A stretch of 64,000 nt of DNA from Schmidtea nova (taxonomy: Eukaryota). A program made the position numbers and the translations under genes. How positions within the stretch are numbered: the first letter of the stretch is position 1; every line of letters starts with the position of its first letter. The notes below the pieces were generated by a model. That model did not search any database. It had not been told where the DNA came from and saw only the letters and a program-made list of their open reading frames with translations. Below, piece by piece: positions 1 to 50,476 of the stretch. The DNA is taken from contig CM097882.1 in assembly GCA_044892505.1 (NCBI GenBank), positions 368,714,001 through 368,778,000 on the forward strand, read 5' to 3'.

Positions 1-3000
1 GGTGTTTGCTTACATAATTGGATAACATTCGAATCAATGTGCCGTTAAATCTTTCCGTTTGTCCATTGGTTTGCGGATGATATGGTGACGTTCGTAATTT
101 GGCTATTCTGAAGTAATTTGTTACTTCATCTAATATTTCACTCATAAAATTTGTCCCTTGATCTGTCAGTATTTGTTTCGGGGTTCCGTATCGACAACAT
201 ATTTCCTCTACTAAAATTCTTGCTACGGTCTTTGCTTTTTGATCCGGCATCGCAAATGCTTCAGGGAATTTAGTCAAATAATCCGTTATTACCAATATAT
301 ATTGATTCCCGTTTAAACTTTCTGGCAATGGTCCTATTACATCCATCGCAATGGTAGTCATTGGTTCCGCTGGTATTGGCATGGGTTTTAAGGGATTTTT
401 CCATTTCTTCCCACTATCCTTTCTTGTGGCACAAGTTAAACAGTTCTTTATCCATTCCTTTACGTCTTCGTCCATTGTTGGCCAATAATATTTTTGTCTC
501 ATGCGATCTAATGTTTTCTTATCGGACATGTGTCCTCCCAACTTTCCGTCGTGGTATTGAGTTATTATCTCTTTTCGTCTATTACCTGGCAGACACATTA
601 ATCGTTTTTCTCCATCCTGTATTAATAACCATCCTTTTTCTATTGTGTATCGATGTTGGTATTTCCTCATGTGTTCTTTTAACTCCGCATTGTCTTTGAA
701 TACATCCATATTCCGTGAGCTTAGGAATTCTATGATGGGTCTTAGTTCTTTATCCTCTTGCTGATCTTTCTTTAACTCGCTGAAATCCAAATCCTCTGCT
801 ATCATTATGCATATTCTTTGCACTTCTGGGTCTGTTAATTCTGGAAACGTTAATCTTGACATGCAATCTGCGTTGGCATTCGCTTTTCCTGATTTGAATT
901 TTATATCTGGTGAATATTCTTGTAATTGCATCGCCCATCTCATTAATCTGCTGGATGTTTCCTTATGTTGTCCTAGCCATACCAGTGGTTGATGATCCGT
1001 GGTTATGCATATAATGTGTCCCCATAATAGATATTTAAAGTGTTTTATTGCTAATATTATTGCCAATGCTTCTCTCTCCGTTACTGAATAATTCTTCTCG
1101 TGTTTCTTGAATGTTCTGCTATAATATCCGATCACTCGTTCTTTACCTTCGTCATCATATTGTCCTAACACTGCTCCTGCTGCATATCCACTTGCGTCAG
1201 TCGCGAGTAAGAACGGCTTCTTGAAATTCGGGTGAACCAATATTGGTGCAGTTATTAGCTTATCTCTCAATGTTTCAAAGGCTGTTTGTTGTTCGCTTCC
1301 CCATATGAACGATACGTCTTTCTTTACTAGCTCCTGGATTGGTTTTGCAATTCCTGCGTAATCCTTTATGAATTTTCTATAGTAACCGCATAATCCGAGA
1401 AATTCTTGGATCTGCGTTATAGTCTTTGGTATTGGACATTCTTTTACTTTATCAATGTTTCTGGGATCCGGTTCCTTTCCTTTTGCGGACACAATATGTC
1501 CTAAGAATGTCACTTTCTCTTTTGCCCAATCACATTTCGATGGTTTGAGCTTGAGTTTCCATTGTCTCAATCTCACAAATACATCTCTGATATCTTGGAT
1601 GTGTTGTTCAAATGTGCCTGAATATATTAACAGATCGTCGATGTAAACCATGCATTGTTTTATGCCGTGGGTGACAAAATTCATACATCTTTGAAATGAT
1701 GCTGGCGCATTGGTTAGTCCAAATGGCATTTTCCTAAATTGGTACAAGTCTCTTCCGATAGTGAAAGCAGTTTTCTCTTTGTCTTCCTCCTTCATTTTAA
1801 TTTGCCAGTATCCGCTTTTCAAATCCAATGATGTAAAATATGCCGCTCCTTGTAATGTCAATAACATCTCGTTGATGTCCGGTAATGGGTAGGTATCCCT
1901 TTTTGTAACTGCATTTAATCTCCGATAATCAATACAAAATCGTTGTGTTCCGTCTTTCTTTTTCACCATTACAACTGGGAATTGCCACGGTGAGCAGCTT
2001 GGTTCAATTACTTCTGCGTCTAGCATTTTCTGTACCTCTGCTTCTGCTACTGATTTTTGCGCTTCGGCTAACTTGTATGGTCTTAACGCAATCGGCGTTT
2101 CGTCTGTTAGTGGAATCGTATGTAGTGTGACGTCGCATGTCCCTAGATCTAAATCGGATGCTGCGAATATGTCTTTATATTCTATCAGTAGTCTTTCTAG
2201 CTGTTTCTTTTGATCCTCATTCAATAGTTGGCTATCAATGTTCCAAGTGGGTTCTTCCTCTTTTACTCCTTCTTCTATTGGTATTTCGATATCTATCATT
2301 GGAGTTAGTTTACCCAATCTTTCATTTTCATAAATTATTTTATCCTCTTCATCGAAATTTACTACATTTATTGGGATTTCTCCGTTGTCATTCGCACTCA
2401 CTAATCCCCTTGCCATTGGCAACGACTTTCTCTTTTCAAATCTTTTACTGGGTTCAAAGATCATGTCACCTTCTAAGGTAGGGTCTATTTTTACGAAGCA
2501 TATTTTCTCTCTCCGTGCTGGTACGATTATTTGTTTCGAACTTGTTACTTTTGCTTCTATTGCGCATATCTGTCCTGTCCTATCCTTTAATCTCATTGTT
2601 CCGAGGTCAATAACTATTTCTTTAAATAATGCTGGCATCAGATCCGTGCCTATAATGCATGGTACGCTCAGTGCTGGTATTACTGCTACGTACGTTTCGA
2701 TTTCCGTGTTTTGATGTTTTATCTTTACCCACCATCTTCCAGCAACTTCTACTACTTCTTTACTGCATGCTATTACGTGAACGTTGGTTCTCTCAATATC
2801 CCGTCTTTGTTCTTGTGGTATCCATTTTATATCTATTGCTGAGATATTTGCTCCTGTATCAATCATCGCTTCGATTTCCCTTCCGTTAATTTCGATTGTT
2901 GTAGTTAATACTGGACCGGTGTTTGATGACATTACTGCAATTGTATGTGAGTCTCCTTGCGGATCTACGCTTCTGCACCGTCTCGTTCTATAGTCTTCCG

Positions 3001-3148
3001 GTATCATAGGATATATGTTTGTCATCGGCATCATTTGCATTGTATTTTGTTTCATCCCCGGTGTTGGTTCTTGGTACATGGTTGGTGGGGGTGCGTAACA
3101 CTTCCACATTTCGCTGGATTCTTTTCGACGTACTGTGGTACTTGATTT
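1..3148 (-). CDS. pol: Pol of element A: aspartic protease, RT, RNase H, integrase (open to window edge, so absent from ORF track)
   Basis: Manual translation: AMIDTGA (DTG 2852-2860), VYIDD (~1635-1646), LATDASG (~1190-1210), YHDGKLGGH..CLTC integrase zinc finger, IAMD, LTDQGTNF, QTNGQTERFN. Frame opens after TAA at 3149-3151. Confidence 0.93.
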
Positions 3149-6100
3149 TTAAATACTTGACCTCCTTCGTTATCATCATCATCGTCGTCACTGGAATCGT
3201 CTTGGGTTCTGTACCCTTTCATTCTTTCCCATAGTCCTTTTCTCTCTTTCTTTAGTTGTTGTCTTGCTTGCTCGTTGTTCATTATCTTTTTAAATTTTCG
3301 TCCCACCTCTTCATCGGTTCCTTTCATTTTTGCCAGTATTTTTAGGAGTCTCTTTATTCGGTGAATATCTTTTGAATGACCGTGTAATACCATTGTTTTT
3401 GCCAAAAATGGTAAGAATCCTACCACCAATTTCCAATTTATTTTCTTTTCTCTTTTATAGATGTCAAAACAGGCTAACATTTGAGTTATTATTACCCGTA
3501 TTATTTGTATAATTAGTATAACACCAAGTATTCCTGCCATCATTTGTCCAAATATTAAAAATCTTCCCCACATCGCTTTCATCATGTTCTCCGTTGCCTT
3601 CTTAAAGTGGGCTGGTGACAATAATAATTCGTAATTTGGTCCACCTTGGTAATTTGTTCCTCCTGTTATTGTTACAATGCTGGATAACACCGCTTCCCTT
3701 CTTGCTGGAAATAGTATATTTTGTCTCGCTGCCTCTAAGTCTTTTGCGCTATAGAATCCCATATTACTTACATCTACGTCTTTAAATTTTCGCCCTTTTG
3801 ATAGTTGCATCAATTCAAATTCCCTTGGTGCTGGTACCTCTGTTCTTGACGGAAACATAACCCAATTTCCGTCTGGTTTTTGGTATAGTGGTCCATATGC
3901 GTTGCTGCAATTGAAAGGATTTGGTTCGAAGCTTACTGGATTTATGATTCTTGTCACTGGTTGCACATATCTTACCTTCCCTTTGTATTCGATTTCTAGT
4001 TCGTTAGTACACTGCCCTGGTTGTAATTTTGTCATTGTCGCTACCTTCGCATTTGTCTTTTTACATATGTATACATACATGACTTCTCCGACTACCCTTC
4101 CAAAATGACCTTCTCTTAATGGTAATAGTGGCATTGCACTATCTGGGTTTGTGATTGCTACTGCTAGTTTTGTCTTTAATATTTCCCTATTTAACATACA
4201 ATCGTTATTTATTAAGTCGTAATACACTTTTTGTAGTGACGCTTGTCCTCTATGGAATAGAAAATCCATTTTATTGTTCATGTAAAGGTGTAACTTAACA
4301 TCATTCGTGTTTACTTTGCGTTTCGCACTAGGTACTTCTTGTTTTGATACGAAAATGCCGGGGTAGTTGGTTTCCAACATGGCTACTCCGCATTTCAAGG
4401 CTGTTTTTCCTTTTACAAACCTCATTCCGATATCTGCATCTGAGGTAATTAGTTCCGTTGGTGTATTTCTCATTTTGATTTGTTTTTCTTGTGTTCGGGT
4501 TTCAATCTTTTTCTCTCCTCGTACTGTGTCTTGAAGTATTTTTCCTCTTGCTGCCTCGTCTTCTTCTTCCTCTTGGAAGGTTTTCCCTTGTATCTCATCG
4601 AATTCTGCTTCCTTTAACAGTTGTAGTTGACATTCCTTTCCTCGTATCTGGTAGGTTAGGGTTGATATACCAGTCTGACAAGTGTTTGACTCGATTTTGC
4701 ACATAGGTAGAGTTTTCATTTCTCCCGTCGTTGGATCGAAGAATGCCTCGTACGTTTTTAGTTCCACTGTATAGGTATCTATTACCACTAGGTTTGTTGC
4801 TGCTACTCCGAATATTGGATATGTTGCTCCTTGGCAGTACCCTTCTCCTCCCGTAATAGCTCCTGCTACATAATATGTTTGTTGCAATATCACTCCCGTT
4901 TTTCCTCTTATCTTTATTCTATCTCTAGTCTCTACTTCCCCATGTTTAAATAATTTTTCACAGTCTTCTCCTTGCAGCATTACCGATTCTCTTTCCGTTC
5001 CTGGCATCACGATTGCTGAGTAATGGCGGTGTCCACAATAAAAAGCAAATCTGGTTTTATAAACTTTGCATTCTCTGACCATTGTTCTTATCAGTTCAGC
5101 TTCCTGATATACGTGATATAATTGTCTCTTTTTTAATGTTTTTAGCTCCGTTGGGGTTGCGTCTTTACATTGTTCTGTCCCTCGTAGTGAATATTTCTCA
5201 CCTAATGCCATTTGATCACAATCGAATACTTCAAATGCTGTTGCTCCGTCAGTACTAATCATCCATATTAACATCATCATAATAATAGAACTCAAGTTTA
5301 GTGATGATTTCCCGTTTCCTGTTCCCGACTTTTCCTTTTCCAATTCTCCCAATATCTCTTCGAATTTCCTTTTCATATTTTTGGCTTGGTTTTTCTTTTG
5401 GTTCGTTTTTGTGAATGTTTCCCATCCTCCTTTACTGATGATGTACGGTTCTATTTCCTTCTCTATAATTTTGGCTGTATTCTTTATATGTCTTTCAAGT
5501 GCTGTGGGTTTCAGTCGACCTCTACTCAGTGTCAGCAGATTGTAAATGGTGTATGCCATAGCTATTAAATATTTGTTATCCGTCTCTGCTCCTTCCGTTA
5601 ACTTCTTTATCAACATCGTGGTTCCTTGCCAATCTAGGTGGTTTGACCTTGTCTTCTCTTTTATCAGTTCTGGTAGGATTGGTGCGATGGCGCTATGCAG
5701 TGATTTCGCCCTTTCGCTTATTTCGTTTATTCTCCACCATTTCTTTAATTCTGGATCGATTATTGCCAGTATTTCCATTAACATCTTTGATATCCATTCT
5801 TCGCCTTGGTATGTTTGTGTTGTTTCTTTTTCTTTCGTTTCGGCTATTTTATTTAGTTTCTTTAGACACAACTCCCATTGATCCCGTCTTTTTTCCTCTC
5901 TTGATTTTATAACTACATTTGCTGGATCCATCTTGGGTCTACCTCTAGGTCGTTTATCCATTGTCGTGCCCGTTTCTACCAATCTTGTTTCTCGTCCAGT
6001 TTCTTCTGTGACGTCTCTTGGTTCGTTGGCTCTTTCTTCTAACCATCTTTCCATTTCTTGTGTGAATTGTACATTTTCTACATTTGCCCTCCTTGCTTCC

Positions 6101-7935
6101 TCTTCTGCTATTTCATTTACTTCTTCGATGATTATTTCTTGTTCAACTTCATCTTCGGTGTTGGTTACCGGTATTGCTGTTGGTAATTCTTGAATTCTTT
6201 CGAAAATATTATCATCTTTCTCTTTTGTTAGCTCTATTAACTCCTCTAACATATCATCGCTATCTGTAAAAATTTCGTCTACATCGTATGGTTCTGGTGG
6301 TGTTCTTTCTCTTGTCTCTCTTGGTGTTGTTCTAGCTTGTTCTGAGCTTGTTCCTGGAGTCATTACCGATTTCATTGGGCTCGGCGTACTCATACTTCCT
6401 TTTGGTTTCTTTTCCTCTTTCAATTTCAATGGTTGGCCTGCTATTGCTGCCACTGTCAATGTATTTGCGATATCTAATTGCGCTGGCGTTATTCCAATTT
6501 CCAAGCTGTTATCTAATGATCGTCCTTGGTGTTGTAAATGGAATGGTGGTTCATATCTCAATTTCTTTTTAATGTCCCGAACTTTCTCCGCTATCCCTAC
6601 CCAAAACTCTTCCTTTTCTTGGTTCGGATATACTATTCTTAGGTGTACTTTCTGTGGCGATTCCTGCGAGAATTCTTGGTTTCTCCATTTTTTAATTACG
6701 TGATCCAATTGTTCTGGACACCACTCGTTAACTCTTTTGTATTCGGCGATTGCTTTTGCTACTTTACGCAAGCATGTTATGTCTTCTCCATTAACTACGA
6801 AAAAATCTGCGAGACCTTTTACTACTTTTCTCTTGCCGTGCGCATTGGTTTTTAATATTTCGACAAATTCTTCCGTTTTTTGTTTTTCTCTTTCCAACCA
6901 CATGGTTGTCGTTTCTGGTCCGTCTAAATCTGCTGGCATGGCTTTTCTTGTTACCATACAGACTCTTCCGGTTTCCGGTTTGTGATCGTCTTCTATGCCT
7001 ATTCCGTATTCCTCTTCGTATTCGCCTGCTTTTGGTTCCCAACATTTTCCTCGTTCGTTCCATTGTTTTTCTACAGGTGTTGGTAATCGTCTGTTGAGAT
7101 TGAGTTCTTCTAATACGTCTTCCCATTCTGGCCAAATCCGCCAATTTCGATAAATGTCTACTATTTGTTGTAATTTATGCACAACTTCTTTTTGTCGTTC
7201 CCGTTCTCTTTTCTCATCTTTAGCAGTTTCTCTTGGTGTATCGTCCATTCTGATAACGTGGATGGTTTGGTGATTATCCCATATACCAATTTTATATAGC
7301 CGTCTTTCATCGTGATCCCATAATACATGTTCGTTGTATTTCATGATTATGTCATCTTCCCATTCTTCTTCTGGTTCTCTTTGTAATAGTGTCTCGTTGA
7401 TGACATTTACTAATTCTTTTATGGTACAATCTGCTAGTACTTCAATCTCTTTGGTATCTTCATTAGGCAATTCCACTGAAATTTTTAGATCTGTTATTTT
7501 TCCTTGTCTAAACATTGCTTTTCCCATTTTGGCAATTACCTTTCCGTATGAGATCTGTGACCATCTCGTGTGACTTGTGTCACGTATGCACTCGATACAT
7601 CGTTTCAACTTCTCGTATTCGCTTCTCATTAACTCCTTTCTATGTTTTTTGATTTGTGGGATGATTTGTTCTATCATGGAATTTAGATTTCCTCGTAAGA
7701 TTCGTCCTTTCTCATATTCTAACCGTGGTTTTATCTTCTTCTCGAAACACGTATTCGCTTCCTTTGCTACTTCTTGTAGGTTCTCTTCTCTCTTATCATC
7801 GTGTATCGATAATGTTGTCACCTCTCCTGGCCATATGCCTGTTTCTATCAAATGCGTCCTTTTCTTCACCAGTCCATTCTGTGAATATAGGAATTTGTTC
7901 TTATACGAACTCCCTAATCTGTCTTCTACCCATCG
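3052..7935 (-). CDS. Cargo/envelope polyprotein: two ubiquitin-like domains, AT-hook, Bcl-2-like domain, signal peptide, chuvirus-like glycoprotein, TM
   Basis: Ubl-like ~7245-7490 and ~6440-6650; KRPRGRPK 5932-5955; PYIISKGGWETF BH2-like ~5413-5448; hydrophobic segment then AFEVFDC; MNNKMDF..NDCMLNREILK..NPD..GEVMYVYIC glycoprotein motifs; TM ~3490-3565. In frame with gag across one TAG. Confidence 0.8.
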   Translation of the reverse strand, partial: RWVEDRLGSSYKNKFLYSQNGLVKKRTHLIETGIWPGEVTTLSIHDDKREENLQEVAKEANTCFEKKIKPRLEYEKGRILRGNLNSMIEQIIPQIKKHRKELMRSEYEKLKRCIECIRDTSHTRWSQISYGKVIAKMGKAMFRQGKITDLKISVELPNEDTKEIEVLADCTIKELVNVINETLLQREPEEEWEDDIIMKYNEHVLWDHDERRLYKIGIWDNHQTIHVIRMDDTPRETAKDEKRERERQKEVVHKLQQIVDIYRNWRIWPEWEDVLEELNLNRRLPTPVEKQWNERGKCWEPKAGEYEEEYGIGIEDDHKPETGRVCMVTRKAMPADLDGPETTTMWLEREKQKTEEFVEILKTNAHGKRKVVKGLADFFVVNGEDITCLRKVAKAIAEYKRVNEWCPEQLDHVIKKWRNQEFSQESPQKVHLRIVYPNQEKEEFWVGIAEKVRDIKKKLRYEPPFHLQHQGRSLDNSLEIGITPAQLDIANTLTVAAIAGQPLKLKEEKKPKGSMSTPSPMKSVMTPGTSSEQARTTPRETRERTPPEPYDVDEIFTDSDDMLEELIELTKEKDDNIFERIQELPTAIPVTNTEDEVEQEIIIEEVNEIAEEEARRANVENVQFTQEMERWLEERANEPRDVTEETGRETRLVETGTTMDKRPRGRPKMDPANVVIKSREEKRRDQWELCLKKLNKIAETKEKETTQTYQGEEWISKMLMEILAIIDPELKKWWRINEISERAKSLHSAIAPILPELIKEKTRSNHLDWQGTTMLIKKLTEGAETDNKYLIAMAYTIYNLLTLSRGRLKPTALERHIKNTAKIIEKEIEPYIISKGGWETFTKTNQKKNQAKNMKRKFEEILGELEKEKSGTGNGKSSLNLSSIIMMMLIWMISTDGATAFEVFDCDQMALGEKYSLRGTEQCKDATPTELKTLKKRQLYHVYQEAELIRTMVRECKVYKTRFAFYCGHRHYSAIVMPGTERESVMLQGEDCEKLFKHGEVETRDRIKIRGKTGVILQQTYYVAGAITGGEGYCQGATYPIFGVAATNLVVIDTYTVELKTYEAFFDPTTGEMKTLPMCKIESNTCQTGISTLTYQIRGKECQLQLLKEAEFDEIQGKTFQEEEEDEAARGKILQDTVRGEKKIETRTQEKQIKMRNTPTELITSDADIGMRFVKGKTALKCGVAMLETNYPGIFVSKQEVPSAKRKVNTNDVKLHLYMNNKMDFLFHRGQASLQKVYYDLINNDCMLNREILKTKLAVAITNPDSAMPLLPLREGHFGRVVGEVMYVYICKKTNAKVATMTKLQPGQCTNELEIEYKGKVRYVQPVTRIINPVSFEPNPFNCSNAYGPLYQKPDGNWVMFPSRTEVPAPREFELMQLSKGRKFKDVDVSNMGFYSAKDLEAARQNILFPARREAVLSSIVTITGGTNYQGGPNYELLLSPAHFKKATENMMKAMWGRFLIFGQMMAGILGVILIIQIIRVIITQMLACFDIYKREKKINWKLVVGFLPFLAKTMVLHGHSKDIHRIKRLLKILAKMKGTDEEVGRKFKKIMNNEQARQQLKKERKGLWERMKGYRTQDDSSDDDDDDNEGGQVFKNQVPQYVEKNPAKCGSVTHPHQPCTKNQHRG

Positions 7936-10707
7936 CTAAATATCTTCCGTGAGTGGAGTTTTGATCCAAATCCTTGGCAAACATGTTTTTATCTCTATTA
8001 GAATTATATATTCATGGAGTGGTTCTTTTAATAATTTTCCTACGTATTGGCTTAGTGTTTCTACTTCCCGGCCTGGTAACCACTCTTTATAGTTCATTTG
8101 TAATATCGCTCTCATGAATTTCCGATAGTGTTTCTTGTCAATGAATTCCTCATTATATATTACTTCTAGCGCGTTATCTAATAATTTCTGGATCTCGTCC
8201 TCTTTTACTTGAATACTTTCTGGTGTCTTTACTACTTCTATCTTTTTGTCCTCAATTTCCGGTTCGTCTAGCATGTCCCCTGCTAGACTACTGACGTCAC
8301 TATCCTCTTCGTCGTCTGAAAAATTCTTTGCCTGGCCTCTCAACATGTTAATGTGTTTTATTTGGTTGATTTCACTTGGTGGATTTTCTGTTGGTTTCGT
8401 TTCACTTTCGCTAGTTTTTTGTGTTGATTTACTCTCGTCGTCTACTACTTCGACTTTTCTCATTTTTCGTTCCAACTCATCTATTTCTCGCAACCGTCTT
8501 CGTATCATTTTCCCTTTAAATATTCGACTGATTCGTGTTTCGTGACGCACTGGCGATGGAATTCCTTCTGGTTCTATTTCCTTGATTACCATCACATTCC
8601 TTTTTGTCTCTACTACTCCCATGTTTTCCCATGTATCCGTTAGTTTCAATTTTACTTCTGGTGCACCTTCTATTTTTAGGAATGCTTCTCTGGGCAGTTT
8701 CGTTACTCCTGGAGCCATTTCATTCACTTTATTGAACAATATTTCTACTTCTTCCTTTATGTTATATTGGAATCGAAACACGTGCTTGTTTGGCAAAATT
8801 ACCATCATTCCTCTTTTCCCGAGTTTCCTTTTCTCTTCTTGGTTCCCTTCTTTTTCTACTTCCTTTTCTGTTTCTTTTTCTGCTTCTTCATCTTCTTGTA
8901 TTATCTCTTTTCGGCCTTCGTTGTTGGTTGGATTCGGGTTTGTTGGATTTATTTCTGGTACAGTCTCTTTCTCGTGGGTATTTGTTTGATTGGTTGCTCT
9001 CATCATATTAATTCTTAGAGGTTGTCGTTCTCTTTCTTGCTGTTTTTGTTCCTCTTCTCTTTGTATTCTTGCCCATTCCTGAGCATGTCGTGCTTGACTT
9101 TCCCGATTCAATCGTTCGTTTTCGCTTTCTATTTTTCTCATCATATTGATTTGTTGTTGACCTGTTTGCGGATTTCCTCTGGTTGTATTGTTTATCAGCT
9201 CCGTCAATCTTTGAACCTCTTGCATTAAATGTATCTCTTTAGTGGTATTTTTATTTTGGTTATTATTATTACTATTTGGTTGGTTTCCGTATTCCGGTTG
9301 GTTTCCATTATTTGGCTGATTTCCATAATTCTGTCGGTTTCCACCAGTTGGTTGGTTTCCATAGTTTTGTCGGTTTCCGGTATTCTGCCAGTTTCCTCGT
9401 TGATTGCTTCTTTGTCCGCAATTTCTTGATAGGTGTCCAGGCCGTCCACAATTAAAACAGGTTATTGTGTAACATCTGCTCTCTGAATGCCCTTTTACTC
9501 CACATTTTCCACAATTCAAGTTCTGATAACATTCTTGTTTCCAATGTCCCAATTTCCCACATGTTTTGCATTGTTTCGTTGGTCCTTGGGGGTTGTAATT
9601 GTTTTGATTTCCGTAATTTGATACTTTATTCCCTTCATTCCTTCGTTGCGGTGGTGGTCGGTTTAATTGTTGTGAATTTGGAATGTGGTTATTCAGGTTC
9701 ACTTCTTGTTCGTTTTGTGCTGTATCCATAGCTAAATAGATTCTACCATCATTTCCTATCATGTGTAGTTCAAATCTATTAGCTGTTTCTAGTGCTTGGT
9801 CGATGGTTTTACAACCTTGACATCCAACTTGCGCTCTTATGTCGGGTCTTCTTAATCCTCCCACAAAGATAGCTGCCATTAACTCCTCATTTATTGGGCT
9901 GTCTTGATTAAAGATCAACTTTGCTAACTTTTTCAATTCGCTTGCATATACCGCATTCGATTCATTTATCTTTTGTTTCCTCATTGAGAATTCCGTGAAT
10001 GCCTCATTCAATACTTTATTTATTCCAAAGGTTTGTTGGAAAAAGTCCTTTATCGCTGACCAACTTGTAGGTGGATTAGTTCCATTCTTTGCTTCCAAAT
10101 ATAGATCTAATGCGCTATCTTTCAAATATAGCTGAATTCTGCTTACAGTTGTTTCTGGTTTCCACTTGCATACTTCCACGAATATGCCAAATTCCTTTAA
10201 GAAAGTTTCTAATTTACTCGCATCTCCATTAAACGGTTCTCCGGAAAATTTGTCTTTTATCTCTTCTCTTGGTTCACTCATTTCGATTCCGCTGTCTGTA
10301 GTTATTTTACTTTCGTTTCCTCTTGTTTCTAGTTCACTGTTAGGTTCGTCACTTGAATTTCGGTCGATCTCAGTTTCCTTTGCTGATTCGTTATCTGATG
10401 CTTTACTATCGTTATCGGTATCGTCACTTTCTGTTTCTTGTTCTACTTCGTCTTCTATTTCTTCTATATAATCGTTGTTGGTTTTGTCGACTTCTATTTC
10501 ACTTATTGGGTTTCTCTCGGGTTCTGCTTGATTTTCTTTGTTGCTTGAACTGTTGCTTGTTACTGATAATTTATCGTTTTCGATAATCGACTTTTGTATT
10601 ATTATCTGCCTTGCTTTACTTCCTTTTGGGCCTTTCTGATTATTATTCTTGGTAGCTTTATTCTTTTCTGCTGGTTTTATTATGACACTCTTTTCTCCTT
10701 TTCTCAA
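7936..10707 (-). CDS. gag: Gag of element A (capsid, three CCHC zinc knuckles, N/Q-rich region, C-terminal Ubl-like segment)
   Basis: EPFNGD..FLKEF, LYLKDSALD, RKQKINE, FVGGLR capsid motifs; CKTCGKLGHWKQEC, CGKCGVKGHSESRC, CFNCGRPGHLSRNC. Confidence 0.92.
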   Translation of the reverse strand: MRKGEKSVIIKPAEKNKATKNNNQKGPKGSKARQIIIQKSIIENDKLSVTSNSSSNKENQAEPERNPISEIEVDKTNNDYIEEIEDEVEQETESDDTDNDSKASDNESAKETEIDRNSSDEPNSELETRGNESKITTDSGIEMSEPREEIKDKFSGEPFNGDASKLETFLKEFGIFVEVCKWKPETTVSRIQLYLKDSALDLYLEAKNGTNPPTSWSAIKDFFQQTFGINKVLNEAFTEFSMRKQKINESNAVYASELKKLAKLIFNQDSPINEELMAAIFVGGLRRPDIRAQVGCQGCKTIDQALETANRFELHMIGNDGRIYLAMDTAQNEQEVNLNNHIPNSQQLNRPPPQRRNEGNKVSNYGNQNNYNPQGPTKQCKTCGKLGHWKQECYQNLNCGKCGVKGHSESRCYTITCFNCGRPGHLSRNCGQRSNQRGNWQNTGNRQNYGNQPTGGNRQNYGNQPNNGNQPEYGNQPNSNNNNQNKNTTKEIHLMQEVQRLTELINNTTRGNPQTGQQQINMMRKIESENERLNRESQARHAQEWARIQREEEQKQQERERQPLRINMMRATNQTNTHEKETVPEINPTNPNPTNNEGRKEIIQEDEEAEKETEKEVEKEGNQEEKRKLGKRGMMVILPNKHVFRFQYNIKEEVEILFNKVNEMAPGVTKLPREAFLKIEGAPEVKLKLTDTWENMGVVETKRNVMVIKEIEPEGIPSPVRHETRISRIFKGKMIRRRLREIDELERKMRKVEVVDDESKSTQKTSESETKPTENPPSEINQIKHINMLRGQAKNFSDDEEDSDVSSLAGDMLDEPEIEDKKIEVVKTPESIQVKEDEIQKLLDNALEVIYNEEFIDKKHYRKFMRAILQMNYKEWLPGREVETLSQYVGKLLKEPLHEYIILIEIKTCLPRIWIKTPLTEDI

Positions 10708-11254
10708 CGGGATTACTTTTGTATACTCAATTTTCCTGTCTTATCGTATTCCGATTCTTTTCTTCCTTGGTTGATTGGTTTGGTTTGATTGATTTATCTA
10801 AAATACAAATGTCACTTCAACGATACTCTATTGTTATCGTTGCGCTTTTATTCCCTTTTTACGGGACTTCTCATTACTGGGTTTCTATTATTTTTCCCCA
10901 TTCCCAGATTCCCCTTTATTTAAGTCTATTTAAATTATCTATATACTAGTCACAATTATCTATTTAGTCATAACAATTATCTATCGGTTATTAAAATACA
11001 TCAATTATTTTTCCCGCGGTCTCCCAATTTATTTGTCGTTCGAACGCTCTAATTCCCTGAGTCATTTGACTCGATTATTATTTTATCATCTCTTTATCTT
11101 TCTCTCTGCTAGCCTCTAATTAATTCTGCCGGTCTTTCCGGTCAGCTCCTATTTCTCAATTCTACTTGCATGCATTATTTTAGGTCGCATAATCAGCTTT
11201 ACTCGCATTTCTCTATTATCGGTGCGCACTATTCTCATTATCGTCGACGATCAC

Positions 11255-11470
11255 AACTCTGGGCCTATATTCCCTCTGTTGTTATTTCTTATCACTTGCA
11301 ACCCTGGGCCTATATTCCCTCCGTTGCTACTCAAACGATTGTAACCTTGGGCTTATATTCCCTCCGTTACTATCTTCCTTTAATTTTAAATAATTGCAAC
11401 CCTGGGCCTATATTCCCTCCGTTGCTACTCAACAATTGTAACCCTGGGCCTATATTCCCTCCGTTACTAT
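11255..11470. repeat. Imperfect tandem repeat (core AACCCTGGGCCTATATTCCCTCCGTT), about 5 copies, in leader of element A
   Basis: Seen directly. Confidence 0.85.
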
Positions 11471-11484
11471 ATATCCGGATATCC

Positions 11485-11720
11485 CTATTGGCTCCTTTGG
11501 CCTCAAATTAATATCAATTATCTCAAATGGCTCTTATGGCCTCAAATTCATATCTTATTATCTCAAATGGCTCTATTGGCCTTAAATTCATATCTCAATT
11601 ATCTCAAATGGCTCTATTGGCCTTAAATCATATCTCAATTATCTCAAATGGCTCTATTGGCCTTAAATCGTATCTCTCAATAACGCCTAGCTAGGTCATT
11701 CAATATGGCTCTTTGGCCTC
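11485..11720. repeat. Imperfect tandem repeat (core TATCTCAAATGGCTCTATTGGCCTTAAAT) in leader of element A
   Basis: Seen directly, about 5-6 copies. Confidence 0.85.
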
Positions 11721-11995
11721 AACCCTTTGTTTCAAGGGACAAACCGCTGATAACCCTTTGTTTCAAGGGACAAATTCTAATAACCCTTTGTTTCAAGGGA
11801 CAAACCGCTGATAACCCTTTGTTTCAAGGGACAAATTCTAATAACCCTTTGTTTCAAGGGACAAACCGCTGATAACCCTTTGTTTCAAGGGACAAATTCT
11901 AATAACCCTTTGTTTCAAGGGACAAACCGCTGATAACCCTTTGTTTCAAGGGACAAATTCTAATAACCCTTTGTTTCAAGGGACAAACCGCTGAT
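11721..11995. repeat. Perfect alternating 31/30-bp hairpin repeat (ABABABABA)
   Basis: Constant AACCCTTTGTTTCAAGGGACAAA followed alternately by CCGCTGAT or TTCTAAT; 9 units. Confidence 0.95.
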
Positions 11996-26018: not shown

Positions 26019-26060
<42 letters not shown>

Positions 26061-41373: not shown

Positions 41374-44300
41374 TTATACCAATGTGGACCTCGAATATTC
41401 ACCTGGTATATATTTATCCAAATGGAAATGCCCTGGTACATTTCTGACCAGTTGGCTCCGATACCGCTGCCTTTTCCATTTGTACTTTTTATAAATTTGT
41501 ACGCTAGTTATTAAAGCTAAAACTGCTAATGCTATTATTGATGTTGTGATGACATAAAAAGGCCAATGTGGATTTTTATCTTTTTTACGAAATGCTTGTA
41601 GTTCCTCTAAGTTATGTATCACTATTGGTCTTCCTTGCCTTATTTTGATAGGTTCTTGTTTTTGTTTTTTGGCATTGTATTGTTTTTGGAGTTTGGCTAT
41701 TCCAGTGCTTGTTGGTATTTCGTTTGTATGTAGTGTGGTATTTAGTCTATTATTTGATGTCGTTGTTGTGCTTTTTATTCTATCGGGTGTTATGTTTTGG
41801 TTTTTTATTATATCCTTGGGTAATTGTTCTGTTTTTATCTTTTTGCATCTCCATGTTGTTGTATCTGTGTTTCTCTGTATGCAGATTCTATATATTGTAT
41901 TAGGTGTTAGTTTTGTGAAATTAATATAGTTTCCTCTTTCGATTTCGTTGGTTGTTCTGTCGTCCTTTCCTTTTATCATCTTTGGGTTTTTCCCATTCGT
42001 TGTTTGCATGTATAAATCAATTACTCCTCTATTTATGATAAATGCTCTAACTTCGTTTGTTGATATTTTTATTAATACTCTGTCAAATTCTATTGTTTCG
42101 GTTGAGCCAACAATTGTTATGATTGTTAAGAAGATAGCCGATATTATTAGTTTGTTATGAGATCTTAGATTATACTTGTGAGGTTTATCTATCGTGACCT
42201 CGGCTTCCGCCAACTTGCATCTGTTGACATGTACTACTATTGGATCCTCGTTTTTATGCTTTTGTAAATGTAAATTCTCATTTATTACTTTTACTACTTC
42301 ATATGGACCTTTATATGGTCTTGCTAATTTTGTTGTCTTTCCCTTTCCTACTTGTGGTGACATAAGTCTAACCTTATCACCTACTTTAAAGTTGTGTGGT
42401 TTACTATTTTTGTCGTAGTCGGCTTTGTATTGTTCTTGTCTATATTTGACTTTTAGATTGGCTACTTTATACACTTCTTGCAGTTTTTCCTGCATTAGTG
42501 TGACATAATCTGGTGCATCTAAATATTGTGATACTCGAGGTTCAAATATTGTATCTATTGGTGTTGCTGGTTCTCTTAAAAACATTAAATAATACGGCGA
42601 ATACCCTGTTGTTTCGTTTGGAGTGATATTATGAATGTATGTGCATTGACTTATGTATTCGTCCCAATCATTTTGATTTTTTCCTACAAAAACAGCTAGT
42701 CTGCTTAGTAATGTCCCATTAAATCTTTCTACTAGTCCATCAGTTTGAGGGTGATACGCTGTTGTGTTGATCTTTTGCATGTTAAAAATATTAGCTACTC
42801 GTTTTATTAATTCACTAGTAAAATTTGTTCCTTTATCTGTTAATAATCTTTTGGGTGTGCCTATCTTGAAAATAATTTTTTCTATAAGCAATTTAGCAAC
42901 TGTTTCTGCTGTTTCGTCTTTTGTTGGAAATGCTTCTGCCCATCTAGTAAAATAATCACTAAATACTAGTATATGTTTATTCCCATTAATTGTAGTAGGT
43001 AATTTACATAGAAAATCCATTGCACATAGTTCCATTGGTGATGTTGTTGCTGGAATGGGGTGTAACGGCGCTTTTGTTTTTGTACCTGTATTTTTGCTTG
43101 TTGCACATATTGTACACGCGTTACACCATCTCTTAACATCTTTCTTTAATTCTTCCCAGTAATATTTTTGTAATAATCTACTTGCTGTCTTTCTAGATGA
43201 TAAGTGACCTCCTAATGCTCCATCGTGATATTGTAGTAGGAGTATTTGTCTTAATTTCTGAGGTACTACTATTAATTGCTTACCGTTGAAATCTTCTATT
43301 ACTACTAGTTTCTTTGATATTTGATATTTTGAATTGTTTTCTTTTCTGATTTCATTCCTTATTTTAATGATTTCTGGGTCTTTCATCTGTTCCTCATATA
43401 TATCTATTGGCTTTTCTGCTACTAGTGCAAATATTTCAAGTGCTCCTAATTCTGGTATTCTTGATAGTGCATCTGCGTTTTTATTTATTCTACCTGGTTT
43501 ATATATAATTTTTAGGTGCATGTCTTGTATTTTCATTGCCCATTTAAGTAATCTACTTGATGTATCTTTATGTTTCCATAAGCCTTCTAATGGTTTATGG
43601 TCTGTTCTTATTATCACTTCAGTTCCGTAGATGTATGGTTTGAATTGTTTTAGGGCAAATACTATTGTGTAACATTCTTTTTCTATTGTTGAATACCTCA
43701 GCTGTGCTCCTTTTAATGTTTTACTGGCATATGCTATTACGTAATCTTTCCCTTTCTCTTCTTCTTGGCCTAATACTGCTCCTACGGCTTTCCCGCTGGC
43801 ATCCGTCATTACTATAAATTGTTTTTCGAAATTTGGGTATCTTAACACTGGTGCTGTTATCAATCTTTCTTTTAGTTTGTCGAATGCTTCTTGATGTTCT
43901 TTTGTCCATTTCTTTTGTATCTTGTTAACTTTATTGTTAATTTCTTGTACTATTAACACGTCTTTGCATTCTCCTTTTGTTTTAATTCCCTTTGTTAGTT
44001 CTATTATAGGTGTTGCTATTTTTGCATAATCTTGTATGAATTTACGATAGTATCCTGTTAAACCTAAAAACCCTTGTACTTGTTGTACTGTTTTTGGTAT
44101 TGGGAATTTCTTTACAACTTCTATTTTTTCTGGATTTGGTTTTATCCCTTCTACTGTGACTATATGCCCTAAAAATAGTGCCGAAGACTCTGCCCATTTA
44201 CATTTGGTTGGTTTAATTTTTATCCTTGCTTTTCTTAGTCTCTCAAGTACGTTTGTTATATCTTTTAGATGTTCCTCGAATGTCTTTGATGATATTAATA

Positions 44301-44740
44301 TGTCATCCATGTAAACTGCGCAGTGTTGTACATTTACTAATATTGTGTTCATTAGACGTTGAAATGTGGCTGGCGCATTAGTTAATCCGAAGGGTAATCG
44401 TGTGTACTCATATAAACCATCCTCAATAACAAATGCTGTTTTCTCTGCATCCCCTTCTTCCATTTGAATTTGCATATACCCCTTATTCGCATCAATGACT
44501 GAAAAATACTTAGCATCCCTAAGTTTATCATATTGCTCTTGTGCTTTTGGGAATGGATATGAATCTTTTACTGTTACATCATTTAATTTACGATAGTCAA
44601 TGCACATTCTTATTTCTCCGTCTTTCTTTTTGACGGGTACAATGGGTGATGCCCACTGTGAAAAACTTTGTTATATTACACCTGCGTCTTTTAATTCTTT
44701 AATTTGTCGCTTTATCTCCTCTCTTAGTTTGTATGGTACG
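41374..44740 (-). CDS. pol: RT-RNaseH-integrase fused to signal peptide, FN3-like domain, S/T stalk and TM
   Basis: CIDYRKLN, LPFGL, YMDD (44302-44313), TDAS, HDGALGGH..CTIC, AMD, LTDKG, GLVERFN, YKGPY; then LIISAIFLTIITIVGS, LTPNTIYRICI, WPFYVITTSIIALAVLALI. TAA near 44671 and frameshift near 44745. Confidence 0.9.
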
Positions 44741-47710
44741 CTATATATGGTCTTTGTTTTATTGGTCTTGCATTGCCCGTATCTATTACATGTTTGATTA
44801 TGTCAGTATCTCCTAAATCAAATTCATGTTTTGCAAAAACATCGCTGTATTCATCTATTAGTGTCTGTAATTGTGCTTGTTGTGTTATTGTTAGGTATTT
44901 ATTATTGATTTTCACTTTGTCGTATGATTTTATACTATTTGTCTTACTAGGTTCGACCACTCTTTTGCCGTTATCATTTATCACGCTTGTCTCGCTGACT
45001 TCATACGTTTTCTCTAATTTGCCTTTGAATAGTTTTCCCAATTTTGTGCCTTTGTGTATTTTTATATTACTTTTTTCATAATTCGCTATTCTTAATGGGA
45101 TTATTCCCTTTTTTGGAATTACGCATTCATTAGTTAACATTATATTTTGTGTAATTGCCGTTTCTGGCTCGAAAATAAAAGTGTCCTCACTTTTGACGTT
45201 AACTTTTATTGGGATTATATGATCACACTCATATTCTAATTCGAATGCTTCTAATGCAACAACTTCCGTGAACTTGGACTTATGTTTGATAGCTTTTCTT
45301 TTAATCGTGTTATCCGTTAAGTCTATGATGCAGTTATTCAGCTTGTTGAGTATATCGATCCCTAGTATACATATGCTATTGCATTCTTGTACTACTTTAA
45401 ATATGTGGTCTATTACTTGTTCTGATGTTTCAACTACTAATTCAATATCTCCTTTTAGTGGAATGTAGTGTGCTGATAGTGTTACTACTTTATCCGTTGT
45501 TTTCATAATATTTCTCTTTTGACCATCTGTAAGTTGATCTTCCCTAATCAGGGACGTTGCTGCTCCAGTATCTACTAGTGCATTTATGATTATATTGTTT
45601 ATAATTATTTTAAGTCTTGGCCTTGCTTCGTTTGCTGTTTCTAATTGCTCCATCATTTCGACTTCCAAGCTATAACAACCATATATTTTTTTGGGTTCAC
45701 AGTAACAATTCTTACTTTCTCTAGGAATTTTAATCTCTATATTTTCTTGTAACTCTTTTAATTGTTCTCTTTGGTTTTCGTATAGTCCTTGTTGTGGTGC
45801 ATTTCCTTCATGTGATATATGCGTTTTAACTATTTCCTCATTGTTTTCATCATCTATCAATATTTGCCTTTCTTCATTCCTTTGGATTTTTATTAAACGT
45901 ATTTCTTTATCATGTTTTGCCGTAATCAGGTATTTGGCTACAAACGGGCATAAACATGCTAGTAATTTATATGAATTTCCGAAAACTTGTTTCAGCTGTC
46001 GTAGTGATACTAAAGAAGAACAAACCATTTTTAGTAAAGCAACCGTATAGTAAATTCCCAAAATTGTAGAGAACATGTTTCCAAGGACTGCAAAATATCC
46101 CCATATACTATATAATACTTTATATGCTACTTTTTTGAAATATTCTTTTGATAACAACACGTCAAAATTGTAATTTCCTCCGTAACTTCCTTCGATAACT
46201 TTGTTTACCATTATTGACAGTATTCTTTCTTTTTCGTTTGGGAATAACATGTGTTTTCTTGCACTTTCTATAGCTTCTCTCGTATATATGCCATTGCTAT
46301 CCATATCGTTGATTTCTTTAAACTCCAATCTTTTTTCAAGCTCTATGAGTTCTAATTTGAGTGGTTTCATCGCCTCTTTCCTATCTGACATAGATATCCA
46401 CATTTCGTCATTTATTTTGTATAATGGATCTAATAAATTAGTGCATTTTTCTATTTTTCTTGGTACATATGTTTTTTCTGTTAGTATTCTAGTAATTGGT
46501 TGAAGGTATACCCTTTCTCCTTTGTATATTACTGGTAACTCATTTGTGCACTGATTGTTTGTTGCCAATGATACACTAACAGGTTTGCATTGAAATGTCT
46601 GTATCACTTCTCCTACTATCCTGGCAAATGTTCCTTCTTCTGAGAAGATTATTGGTGCCATCAAATCTGGGTTTGTTACCGCGACTGCCATTTTTGTCCT
46701 TAATATTTCTCTGTTGAGTTTGCAATCGCTCATGATTGTTGATTGATATACTTTATCTAATTGCACTAGTTGATTATGATAGAAAAAATCTACTTTATTG
46801 TTGAAATATGATGCGAGTTTGACGTCGAATTTATTTACTTTTTGTTTTGCATCTTTGACTTCTTCTCTACTTATGTATATCCCTTCATAATTAGTTTGTA
46901 TTATTTCCTTACCACATTTTACACTTTTCCTTTTTCTAACGAACCTCATTGCTTCGTTTTCAGATTCTGACATATATATTGTTGGTGTATCTTTTTCTTG
47001 TACAATTGTTGTTTTTCTTTTTTGATCTCTCACTCTTTTTGAGTCTACATCTGTGAACTGTTTCCCTTTGATTTCTCTAAATTTTAATGATTTTAATTTT
47101 GTTAATTGGCAATCGTATTTATCTATTTTATATATTAGCATTGATTCTCCTGTATCGCAATATGATTCTTCTAATGTACAAAATTTGTATATCATCATTT
47201 TCTTTGAGCTGCTGTCAAATGATGCCTTGAATTTTCTTAGTTCTACCATGTAGTGCTTCTTACTACAACATTACTGAGTTTTTCACCCCATACGGTATAC
47301 TCTCCTCCTTCACAATAACCCCCTTTTGATGTCCATCCTACAATATTTATGTCCTGTCTCATCTTTGCTCCTATTCTTGCTTCTAGCTCGATTCCTTTGT
47401 GACCGCTATATTTAGCTTTCTTTGTTTTAAATGCCTCCTCACAATCCATTGGTGATAATATTACTGCTTCTGGTGTCCATGTGGGTTTTAAAACTGTTCT
47501 TGCCCCAGCATGGCATATATATGCTTCCTCCTGATACTTTATGATGCACTCTTTAGCTTCCGTATGAATAAAATCTGATTCTTGATAAACATGAGACATT
47601 TGAGGCTCTGACATGATTAATTTAGTTGGATTTGCTTCTGGTCAATTTTCGACATCCAACAATGAATATTTTTGTCCCCATTTTGGGTTTTGACAATCAT
47701 ATGCTATTAT
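44724..47710 (-). pseudogene. Chuvirus-like glycoprotein fused in frame to aspartic protease; nonsense at 47642-47644 and frameshift near 47250
   Basis: IIAYDC; YFNNKVDF..SDCKLNREILR..NPD..GEVIQTFQC..CTNELPV; TM ~46040-46110; then ALVDTGA (45564-45572) with no stop between. Confidence 0.85.
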
Positions 47711-50476
47711 TGCATTGCTACCCTTGATTAAATCTAATAATAATGTTATTATTACTATTACTGTGGAGGTTATCGATTTGTTTTCTGTTTTTGGTTTTAT
47801 TGTTGTTTTCTCTATTAATTGTTTTATTACTTTATCTGTATCACTTTCTTTGTTTGTCGTATCCTCATCATATAATATTTTCCATCCTCCTTTCATTTTT
47901 ATCCAGGGTATTGCTTCTACCTTCAATTTTTTATACATCATCGTTACCACGTTGTCTAATTGTCCTTTTGGATTTTCCTTTATAATTTTTTTGTATCTTG
48001 CAGCCAAGTATGCCATGGCCGTTATTATTCTATCTTTATCTATCCCTGTATTAAACAGGATCTTTAATACTGTTTTTTCATCTGCTTCTTCTGTGGCTAG
48101 TCTTTTGGTATCCTTTTTAATTAGTTTCATTTTTTCTGTTATGTTTTCTATGAGTACCGTTGGTCTTGTTTCTGGAAATAGCTTAATATTCATGACTTTT
48201 ATTATTTCTTTTATTTTATTTATGTCGTTGTTGTCATCTTGGTATTCTAGTGTTTCGTGTCTTTGTTTGTTTGCGATTTCTTTTAATCGTTCCGCTGTTT
48301 TTCTATTCTCCGATTTTTCTATTATTTCTGATTTTCGAGGTCTTCCTCTACCTCGTTTTGATGTTTCTGCATCTTTTGTTTTTGCTTCGTCAGCTATTCT
48401 TTCTATTGTTTCTTGTAAGTTACTATATTTTTCATCTATAGGTTTAAATATAATTTCTTCATCCCTTGCTGATTTCTTTGTTTCGCTAGGTGATTTATCC
48501 CATAGCCTAAATAATCTATCAAAATCGTTTTCTTCATTTATACTCAATTCAACCGACGGTACTGGCGTCACTATCTCATCGACCATTCGTTTTTCTATTG
48601 TGGCTACCACAATATTATCACTTACTGGGTTTATCCCATAATCGATTAAATACTCGTCACTCAATAATTCTATTCCGTTAAAATATAATTTTATTACATC
48701 TTTCTCTCCTATGGTTCCTGGCCATTTGGCTCTTACCGTTCGTTTTAATTTGCTCACTTTAGTGCAGGGATGTACCCTTTGTTTGTTTCTGGAAAAGTAG
48801 TTATCGTTTGATTCAATCGTTACATTTAGTGTTTCATGCAGTCTTTCATTTTTTCTTATATATTCTCCATAACATTTTAACATCTCTTTTATTTCTATTT
48901 CTAATTCAAATATTTTTGTTATATTTTGCCTCTTTACCATCATTGGTATCAAATTTCTAATCTTGTCTAATTCAATCCCATTAACCTGTATTTTATTGAT
49001 TATTCTCAGTGTTTCGTTATCATCAAATGGTTGTTTATACAATATCTCTTTAAATTCTTCTATCAATTCTTTTTGTTTATTTTCTTCGGTGAGAAATATT
49101 TCATCTGCTTCTCTAATTTCTTTTAACTCATCATTATCGATATCTACTTCATTTGTAAAAGTACTAAATTCATTTATAGACATTTCAAGCTTTCTCTCAA
49201 TAAGTCTTCCATATTGCGTTTTAAATTCTTTTAATTCTTCTCTTAATATGTTTATTTCTTTATTTGCTGATTCAAGCTCAGCGCTATTTACCTGCTTTAT
49301 CTCAGGCTCATTTTTAAATCTTACTCTTATCGGTGAATCTGCTCGTGGTTTATTACATACCTTTGCTAGGTGACCATACTTTTGGCAATTGTAACATTTT
49401 ATTTGTCCATTAAAATTCACTTTATCCCTACCCTCATTATTATAAGTATTTCGCCTCACTGGGCTATCTTGTCTATTTCTCGAATTATCTCTATATCTAT
49501 TATCTCTTCTATTATATTCGAAGCGACTATCTCTATTATTTCTATTATATCCACTGTAACTGTTATAACCAGAACGATTATCTCTAAAATTATCTCTGTT
49601 GTCTTTATCATTATTTCTGTCAAAACGATTGTCTCTAAAACTATCTCTATTATTATTCCCTTTATAGTTATCTTTAAAATTATCTCTATTTCTATTATCA
49701 AAATTTTTATTTCCTGAACTGTTAAACCTTCCCTTGTTTTCAGGTGATTGGCTTCTATTAGGACTAAATTTTCTTCTATTATTAACAAAATTCAAATATA
49801 ATTGTTTCATTTCTTCCCAAGGGATACTATCATCTTTATTTTTCAACTCAGGTTTTACCTCAAGTTGCTTTTCAATTTCTACAGCGTCTATCTCTGGTCT
49901 AAATCGATCTCTTTGTATTGCTTCGATGCGTTTTGCTTTTTGTACTAATTCATTTAAGTCTTCATATTCAATCGTAATTAATGCTTTGTATAAATATTTT
50001 TGGATTCCGTTCCAAAACTGATCCTCGATTAACCTACTAGTGTGATCTCCTGCACCAAATGCCTTTTTTGCTAATTCTGTTATCGTGTATATATATTCAC
50101 CTACTGATTCTCTTGCTCCTTGGTATCTACTTCTAAATTTTTGACCATTTATTTTTTGTAAGTCTCTATCTATTACTATTTCTTTTCTAAGGTTTGTCTC
50201 TAACTCTTGATAATTAATGCCTTTACATGCTAAATTATTGTATGCTTGTAATGCATATCCTTTTAAATATAATGGAATTCGTTGTTTTAATTCATTTGTT
50301 TTCCATCCGCAAGCCTCTGCATATTGTGCGATTTCGGCAAAAAAGTCGTCGAACTTTTCAGGGTCTCCTTTATATGATTCTATTGGTAGTGTTTTTATAA
50401 AATTATGATTACTGTTGATGTTGTCTGTATTGCTGTTACTTCCACTATTATTGCTGCCTGTACTATTATTACTCAT
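47642..50476 (-). CDS. gag: Gag (one CCHC) - Ubl - AT-hook - Bcl-2-like - signal peptide of element B
   Basis: IPLYLKGYA, RYQGARESV, CYNCQKYGHLAKVC; IKLYFNGIELLSDEYLIDYGI; KRGRGRPRK; LFNTGIDKDRIITAMAY and PWIKMKGGW. Confidence 0.88.
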   Translation of the reverse strand: MSNNSTGSNNSGSNSNTDNINSNHNFIKTLPIESYKGDPEKFDDFFAEIAQYAEACGWKTNELKQRIPLYLKGYALQAYNNLACKGINYQELETNLRKEIVIDRDLQKINGQKFRSRYQGARESVGEYIYTITELAKKAFGAGDHTSRLIEDQFWNGIQKYLYKALITIEYEDLNELVQKAKRIEAIQRDRFRPEIDAVEIEKQLEVKPELKNKDDSIPWEEMKQLYLNFVNNRRKFSPNRSQSPENKGRFNSSGNKNFDNRNRDNFKDNYKGNNNRDSFRDNRFDRNNDKDNRDNFRDNRSGYNSYSGYNRNNRDSRFEYNRRDNRYRDNSRNRQDSPVRRNTYNNEGRDKVNFNGQIKCYNCQKYGHLAKVCNKPRADSPIRVRFKNEPEIKQVNSAELESANKEINILREELKEFKTQYGRLIERKLEMSINEFSTFTNEVDIDNDELKEIREADEIFLTEENKQKELIEEFKEILYKQPFDDNETLRIINKIQVNGIELDKIRNLIPMMVKRQNITKIFELEIEIKEMLKCYGEYIRKNERLHETLNVTIESNDNYFSRNKQRVHPCTKVSKLKRTVRAKWPGTIGEKDVIKLYFNGIELLSDEYLIDYGINPVSDNIVVATIEKRMVDEIVTPVPSVELSINEENDFDRLFRLWDKSPSETKKSARDEEIIFKPIDEKYSNLQETIERIADEAKTKDAETSKRGRGRPRKSEIIEKSENRKTAERLKEIANKQRHETLEYQDDNNDINKIKEIIKVMNIKLFPETRPTVLIENITEKMKLIKKDTKRLATEEADEKTVLKILFNTGIDKDRIITAMAYLAARYKKIIKENPKGQLDNVVTMMYKKLKVEAIPWIKMKGGWKILYDEDTTNKESDTDKVIKQLIEKTTIKPKTENKSITSTVIVIITLLLDLIKGSNAIIAYDCQNPKWGQKYSLLDVEN

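Follow-up and report, generated by a model that had tools for sequence, protein, structure and literature searches.

Giant gypsy elements of the Dugesiidae, Burro/GYPSM1, are among the nearest published counterparts of the retroelements treated here. In planarian Burro polyproteins, a Ubi2/SUMO-like domain (PF11976) is flanked by MATH and BCL-2 domains and set among domains of apoptosis and ubiquitination, with env in frame between BCL2 and the protease (PMC6431247). The IAP (inhibitor of apoptosis) region of Burro1 was reported, second-hand, to protect planarian stem cells from apoptosis (PMC13465017). A second relevant group, the platyhelminth GAG-ENV-POL errantiviruses, has an HSV/gB-type Env (PMC13524379). 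In this study, 64,000 nucleotides of Schmidtea nova (assembly GCA_044892505.1, contig CM097882.1, positions 368,714,001 to 368,778,000, forward strand; hereafter the window) were analysed. The window is AT-rich eukaryotic DNA crowded with mobile elements, and contains two Ty3/gypsy elements, both on the minus strand: element A, from 10740 to beyond position 1, where it leaves the window, and element B, from 50608 to approximately 41374.

Both elements have the order Gag with CCHC knuckles, long insert, class III fusogen, and protease, reverse transcriptase, RNase H and integrase (PR-RT-RH-IN). In common with Burro, they encode a CCHC Gag, a SUMO-like domain upstream of a BCL-2-like one, and an in-frame, mononegavirus-like env placed between gag and pol (PMC6431247); their gene order and Env type are those of the platyhelminth errantiviruses (PMC13524379). 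The core layout (SUMO-like, BCL-2, in-frame env) is already known from Burro, because that order is described in PMC6431247. On the other hand, Burro exceeds 30 kb with a coding span of 25 kb (PMC6431247), whereas the coding span of A and B is approximately 10-11 kb, and no Pfam match to MATH, BIR, ankyrin, midasin-like or dUTPase domains, all of them Burro cargo, was found in the six main open reading frames (ORFs) of A and B. What is new here lies in the insert: a unit of a helical domain and a ubiquitin-like domain (Ubl), referred to as the helix-Ubl unit, together with the range of copy numbers that it covers and the fact that it was kept where the Bcl-2-like domain was lost. We are highly confident that the architecture is Gag, one or several helix-Ubl units, an AT-hook-like motif, a Bcl-2-like domain, a hydrophobic segment and the fusogen.

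A preliminary description of this DNA had quoted four segments as tandem beta-grasp domains, three in A and one in B; all four were found in frame on the minus strand, where it had placed them. The copies in A were tested with a profile of 10 modules from B and nine relatives, with A excluded to avoid circularity; profile scores were compared with 500 shuffles and HHalign scores with 60 shuffles, and summed pairwise scores were expressed as z. The candidate Ubl segments were as follows.

48590..48838, minus strand: Ubl/SUMO-like domain of B, no di-Gly (Pfam, AlphaFold2, Foldseek, VIA)
7240..7497, minus strand: A-U3, best-supported Ubl in A (Pfam Ubiquitin_4 E 0.028; 0/500 shuffles; HHalign 0/60; z 4.5)
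6433..6657, minus strand: A-U4, Ubl (0/500 shuffles; HHalign 0/60; z 7.1)
7795..8022, minus strand: A-U2, Ubl with a TAG inside at 7936-7938 (1/500 shuffles; HHalign 0/60; z 4.0)
8578..8817, minus strand: A-U1, possibly a degenerate Ubl, with no helical partner (equal or better score in 117/500 shuffles and, with HHalign, 57/60; z 1.4)

The best Pfam match of the B segment was Rad60-SLD (E 0.0013), and ubiquitin also matched (E 0.026), both under the curated cut-off. Its AlphaFold2 model (9 rows) had the beta-grasp order strand-strand-helix-strand-short helix, with a predicted local distance difference test score (pLDDT) of 61-85 apart from one block, which scored 57; no fifth strand was formed, and the mean pLDDT over the whole 418-residue construct was 57. 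Foldseek returned ubiquitin/ISG15 rows with a probability of up to 0.91 but E 0.2-0.6, and VIA aligned 63-70 residues with ubiquitin, ISG15 and SUMO at Z 5.2-5.8, a range that the tool itself describes as common, and a root mean square deviation (rmsd) of approximately 3. A family profile found ISG15 in the PDB (E 2e-4). One relative had a partial UBX match (E 8e-4), and the FPR loop with which UBX domains bind p97 was not visible in the family alignment. On three moderate lines of evidence (Pfam, model and structural matches), 48590-48838 is a predicted Ubl.

Judged by profile homology to the family of B, A-U2, A-U3 and A-U4 are putative beta-grasp Ubl domains. The Pfam scan gave no match for A-U4, and a single-sequence PDB search with A-U3 gave nothing relevant. 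A-U1 did not rise above shuffles: against the copies of other elements, 43/500 shuffles scored equally or better, and against the other copies of A, 9/500. Pfam had no match to it, a single-sequence PDB search returned no relevant sequence, and the Atlas rows that link it to ubiquitin and Rad60-SLD clusters at 0.87 serve as no more than leads. A therefore has three supported Ubl copies, among them the overlooked one at 7795-8022, and one doubtful one; the feature is real, but the preliminary description had miscounted it in part. A fragment (P0032) that looked Ubl-like by eye reached a score matched by 106/500 shuffles and was excluded from the counts.

The repeated unit consisted of a helical domain of approximately 75 residues and a Ubl, and in single-copy elements the Ubl lay directly behind the helical domain. 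The copies of A were not head-to-tail, being parted by helical domains and linkers, so that "tandem" held only in the sense of several copies. The helical partners were as follows.

48839..49087, minus strand: helical partner in B (four helices in a stand-alone model, pLDDT 73, 7 rows; conserved in 10 modules)
8023..8208, minus strand: A-H2, shortened helical partner (helical-domain profile; score reached by 3/500 shuffles)
7498..7788, minus strand: A-H3, helical segment in partner position, weak similarity (65/500 shuffles alone; whole-module match at residues 1042-1158, E 5e-4)
6658..6894, minus strand: A-H4, helical partner (4/500 shuffles; family alignment)

Structure comparison of the B helical model gave no clear match: the best VIA score was Z 5.2 (sigma-factor regions), a weak VIA row pointed to the UBA region of cIAP1 (Z 4.0), and nothing was found in BFVD. 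Identification as a BAG domain or a death domain was unsupported. Besides this helical partner and the Ubl copy noted above, the preliminary description had overlooked the Bcl-2-like domain as well as the precedent published for Burro.

Homologue searches by word index with the inserts (A residues 640-1830; B 505-930) found no relatives. Relatives were found through the fusogen, namely 5 long polyproteins and 954 representatives at E <=0.001, and the pre-fusogen part was inspected in 17 among the best 150 of the 954. A whole-polyprotein alignment put the insert in the wrong place and was not used. Copies were counted in 14 polyproteins, including A and B, with a visible nucleocapsid-to-signal region; rows incomplete at the N-terminus were excluded. 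The helix-Ubl unit was present in 11 of them: one Ubl copy was found in nine, two in one, three or four in A, and none in three, in agreement with the earlier claim that copy number differs between families. In the two-Ubl relative, the score of the first copy was reached by 0/500 shuffles. The Ubl copies of A shared pairwise 12-19 identical residues of approximately 80 and had no similarity at the DNA level; the duplication is therefore old, and a recent tandem duplication was ruled out.

In a fusogen tree of 24 rows, which was subject to long-branch warnings, all 10 Ubl-bearing rows fell inside one group of 16 with modest support (83/82), the other six members being truncated or fragmentary; outside the group stood four rows that lack the unit. 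Two relatives had further features ahead of the fusogen: in P0024, approximately 650 residues without assignment (300-950) precede the helix-Ubl unit and might conceal cargo or degenerate units, and in P0026, residues 110-300, directly before the fusogen signal, had by eye the look of a DEDDh exonuclease, with no Pfam match.

The Ile44-centred hydrophobic patch is the binding face of ubiquitin and of Rad23/ubiquilin-type UBLs. With the register taken from family-to-ubiquitin alignments, the Ile44-equivalent residues of the 10 modules were Y,E,E,K,K,W,Q,D,H,E; an aliphatic residue occurred in 0/10, and the patch expected of a proteasome-binding UBL of the Rad23/ubiquilin type was missing. At the place of ubiquitin residues 50-60, the family had a conserved acidic stretch, with (in B numbering) Asp 651 in 7/10, Glu 652 in 8/10, Tyr/Phe 653 in 8/10 and Gly 658 in 10/10 modules. 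These residues bear on the suggestion, made in the preliminary description, that the Ubl domains recruit proteasome receptors or the endosomal sorting complexes required for transport (ESCRT), as ubiquitin or Rad23-type UBLs do. Weak profile matches of the family to ubiquilin and RAD23 UBLs (E 0.05-0.8) are in its favour, and A and B, which had no late-domain-type motifs in the linker between Env tail and protease, might need a substitute. However, the lack of an aliphatic Ile44 equivalent speaks against a canonical adaptor of this kind, and Ubl-bearing relatives also hold YPxnL/PTAP-type motifs behind the Env membrane segment: YPxnL, PT/SAP or PPxY motifs were found in the linker of 10/18 elements against 1.3 expected, kinship being ignored, and those of two further relatives fell outside the interval rule (relatives with such motifs: P0010-P0014, P0017, P0018, P0020, P0022, P0023, P0026, P0029). 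These linker motifs are a candidate ESCRT route for the relatives carrying them, and recruitment through the Ubl domains seems quite improbable.

A di-Gly end followed none of the five window segments and was missing in 14 of the 15 Ubl segments checked, the exception standing behind a lysine run in one relative. Since there is no di-Gly, the domains are, by sequence, non-conjugatable and not type I modifiers, as had been proposed. Ubiquitin inserts in pestivirus polyproteins serve as cleavage signals, and the Ubl domains, which stand in frame at a point where cutting Gag from Env would help, could by that precedent be signals for host deubiquitinases or SUMO proteases; with di-Gly missing in all but that one segment, this is highly improbable. 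Five similar four-residue sites in the Gag-insert of A, against 0.45 expected for a pattern picked after seeing the sites, may be where a protease cuts to free the units.

Downstream of the units, the insert continued with the AT-hook-like motif, the Bcl-2-like domain and the hydrophobic segment, followed by the fusogen.

48329..48358, minus strand: AT-hook-like motif of B (Pfam AT_hook E 0.13-0.33, under cut-off)
5932..5955, minus strand: AT-hook-like basic motif of A (visible in sequence; aligns with the B motif)
47864..48241, minus strand: Bcl-2-like domain of B, BH1-BH2 region (Pfam Bcl-2 E 7.1e-6, 26.9 bits against a cut-off of 31.4)
5395..5823, minus strand: Bcl-2-like domain of A (Pfam Bcl-2 E 0.09 by itself; alignment with the domains of B and five relatives)
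47714..47770, minus strand: putative internal signal/anchor segment of B (hydropathy 2.1 over 19 residues)
5242..5301, minus strand: putative internal signal/anchor segment of A before the fusogen, cleavage presumed (hydropathy 2.1 over 15 residues, 1.5 over 19)

The B domain aligned to Bcl-2 over 67 residues without gaps, and its model matched Bcl-xL in VIA (Z 6.0, rmsd 3.7, 80 residues aligned); the BH1-BH2 helical core was present, and the remainder of the bundle was poorly modelled. The family profile also found Bcl-xL in the PDB (E 3e-5), while a direct comparison of the A and B domains (E 0.02) was uninformative. The domain was recognised in seven elements, two of them by alignment alone, and ended 22-59 residues before the pre-fusogen hydrophobic segment in these seven. 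Because Bcl-2-negative groups adjoined Bcl-2-positive rows at two places on the fusogen tree (99/99 and 94/94), the sequences suggest that the domain was lost repeatedly; the negative groups kept the helix-Ubl unit wherever the region was visible.

This retention is compatible with the view that a single unit serves the element itself, in particle assembly, polyprotein folding or as a Gag-Env spacer, and that the extra copies of A are tolerated, decaying duplicates without added function; the low identity of these copies, their lack of DNA similarity and the stop in one of them also fit. Nevertheless, the single stop in the 2562-codon frame of A, and the Ubl pattern preserved in three deeply diverged copies, point to purifying selection over a long time; three relatives do without the unit. 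We regard an element-internal role as rather unlikely, although it is the strongest of the alternatives.

The AT-hook-like motif, found in A, B and several relatives, raises a nuclear alternative, in which a TFIIS-N/LEDGF-IBD-like helical domain, the SUMO-like domain and the AT-hook together form a chromatin adaptor that targets integration or blunts SUMO-dependent silencing. The helix lengths of B in the first AlphaFold2 model (16, 10, 5, 8, 21) resemble the TFIIS-N/IBD fold, and Rad60-SLD heads the Pfam matches of B. However, the stand-alone model had four helices against the five-helix pseudo-HEAT, no match stood out (best Z 5.2), and a membrane anchor follows the unit in the polyprotein. 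A TFIIS-N/LEDGF-IBD identity was unsupported, with no such chain in the top 50 VIA or Foldseek rows, a result which, from a 7-row model, is no exclusion. A chromatin adaptor appears improbable.

In the reading that we prefer, the Ubl would be the second of two domains in an ancient accessory unit, carried in frame behind Gag by a planarian-type Gag-Env-Pol gypsy clade. Cellular Bcl-2 relatives are tail-anchored, and the hydrophobic segment would have two roles, signal sequence for Env and tail anchor for the Bcl-2-like domain, threading the fusogen into the endoplasmic reticulum while Gag, the units and the Bcl-2-like domain remain cytosolic. Lasting anchorage would be less sure in A because its segment is short. 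The protease of the element probably frees the units. The helix-Ubl unit would bind through its acidic face, most likely to host ubiquitin/SUMO or the cell-death machinery, and its adaptor action would help the Bcl-2-like domain to keep the producing cell alive; the extra copies of A would derive from an ancient intragenic duplication and have since diverged. That the units are non-conjugated adaptors acting on host ubiquitin/SUMO or death machinery has, in our estimate, slightly less than an even chance, and an adaptor function for host survival is more tentative still. In its fullest form, the helix-Ubl unit would be a previously undescribed adaptor family, ancestral to the clade and more constant than Bcl-2, its copies multiplying accordion-like (from one or two to as many as four) to counter a defence or death pathway of the host, next to a Bcl-2 homologue that the Env signal sequence anchors in the membrane; we consider it unlikely that all of this is correct.

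Several points weigh against the preferred reading. The unit persists in at least two Bcl-2-less lineages, so that Bcl-2 in cis is not required. Fold searches (VIA, Foldseek, BFVD) gave no fold for the helical domain, the fold scores in general were middling (Z 5-6), and packing against the helical domain may be all that the conserved Ubl face does. Conservation is overstated by kinship, several of the 10 modules being closely related (four ENA rows), and the copies of A are mostly without the acidic stretch, one of them being broken by a stop. The pattern of protease-like sites (5 against 0.45) was chosen after the fact.

The remaining parts of the two elements were as follows.

9418..10281, minus strand: Gag of A, capsid and CCHC zinc knuckles (Retrotrans_gag E 1.3e-4; zf-CCHC E 2.5e-8)
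3421..5241, minus strand: class III (gB/Monjiviricetes-type) fusogen of A with C-terminal membrane segment (PF24664 E 1.3e-69; hydrophobic peak at residues 2400-2418)
2..3148, minus strand: PR-RT-RH-IN of A, in a frame of its own and cut off by the window edge (Pfam domain matches)
49352..50476, minus strand: Gag of B (Retrotrans_gag E 0.036; zf-CCHC E 4.7e-4)
45777..47713, minus strand: class III fusogen of B, interrupted by a stop (47642-47644) and by a shift of frame near 47250 (PF24664 E 1.8e-71)
41374..45629, minus strand: PR-RT-RH-IN of B and C-terminal extension, frame broken near 44700 (ORFs, Pfam)

Gag, insert and fusogen of A shared its single long frame, interrupted only by the TAG inside A-U2, and pol, in another frame, continued past the window edge. 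B was disrupted in both env and pol. A and B had the PR-RT-RH-IN order and the gB-type env upstream of pol that characterize Ty3/gypsy GAG-ENV-POL errantiviruses; since both are broken, they would fail the intactness rule of PMC13524379. By eye, the Env of B was close to Smed_errantivirus_3 and that of A resembled Smed_errantivirus_5 (PMC13524379). A search for long terminal repeat (LTR) pairs found no direct repeats flanking B at E 1e-8, and A extends past the window edge; a run of N (assembly gap) at approximately 39880-40160, directly 3' of B, may hide its 3' LTR. Three neighbouring tandem arrays (units of approximately 44, 40 and 61/31 nt) at 11237-12025, upstream of A gag, are probably the leader region of A, and similar arrays were located upstream of B (52374-53738). 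The extension after the B integrase (41374-42150, minus strand) ended in a hydrophobic segment, as did the C-termini of relatives P0010-P0014, and several relatives also had 2-4 aspartic-protease-like domains.

Other mobile elements occupied the space between A and B. At 16535-21446, two reverse-transcriptase ORFs in opposite orientation were found together with 1787-nt arms of approximately 100% identity and 300-360-nt repeats, which looks like either a Penelope-type inverted arrangement or an assembly duplication. Polinton/Maverick-like remnants at 22000-39650 contained two pieces of protein-primed PolB in inverted orientation, an integrase with a chromodomain, an A32-like ATPase, a double-jelly-roll-like ORF, and a divergent TBP-like ORF (PF00352 E 3e-16; 28518-29045, minus strand).

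Compared with known systems, A has a repeated helix-Ubl unit, whereas the available Burro text names one SUMO-like motif and neither a helical partner nor repeats (PMC6431247). In the available excerpt of the errantivirus study, the text contains neither "ubiquitin" nor "apoptosis", and its seven supplements neither "ubiquitin" nor "Bcl-2" (PMC13524379); that of PMC8532177 has nothing on the domains of such elements. The literature searched, which excluded most subscription papers, yielded no description of the helix-Ubl unit or of repeats of it. The Ubl domains share the beta-grasp pattern and the non-conjugated state with integral (type II) Ubls such as the Rad60/NIP45 SLD, the Rad23/ubiquilin UBL and the ISG15 domains, but differ from them in having no Ile44-type patch, in a family-specific acidic stretch, and in fusion to a helical domain inside a retroelement polyprotein. 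Similarly, the B domain aligns without gaps with the BH1-BH2 region of cellular and viral Bcl-2 proteins and has a hydrophobic segment behind it, while its BH1 signature is altered, its score is under the Pfam cut-off, and its anchor would double as the start of Env. Accessory genes acting on the host, well known from vertebrate retroviruses, are rare among the LTR elements of invertebrates. With the core layout published, the gain is incremental unless a binding partner is found; the copy-variable helix-Ubl unit and the Env-anchored Bcl-2 homologue would offer two compact, separately expressible domains in a host with routine RNA interference. If the preferred reading is correct in its fullest form, ordinary-sized elements, and not only the giant Burro, would carry a retrovirus-style accessory cassette.

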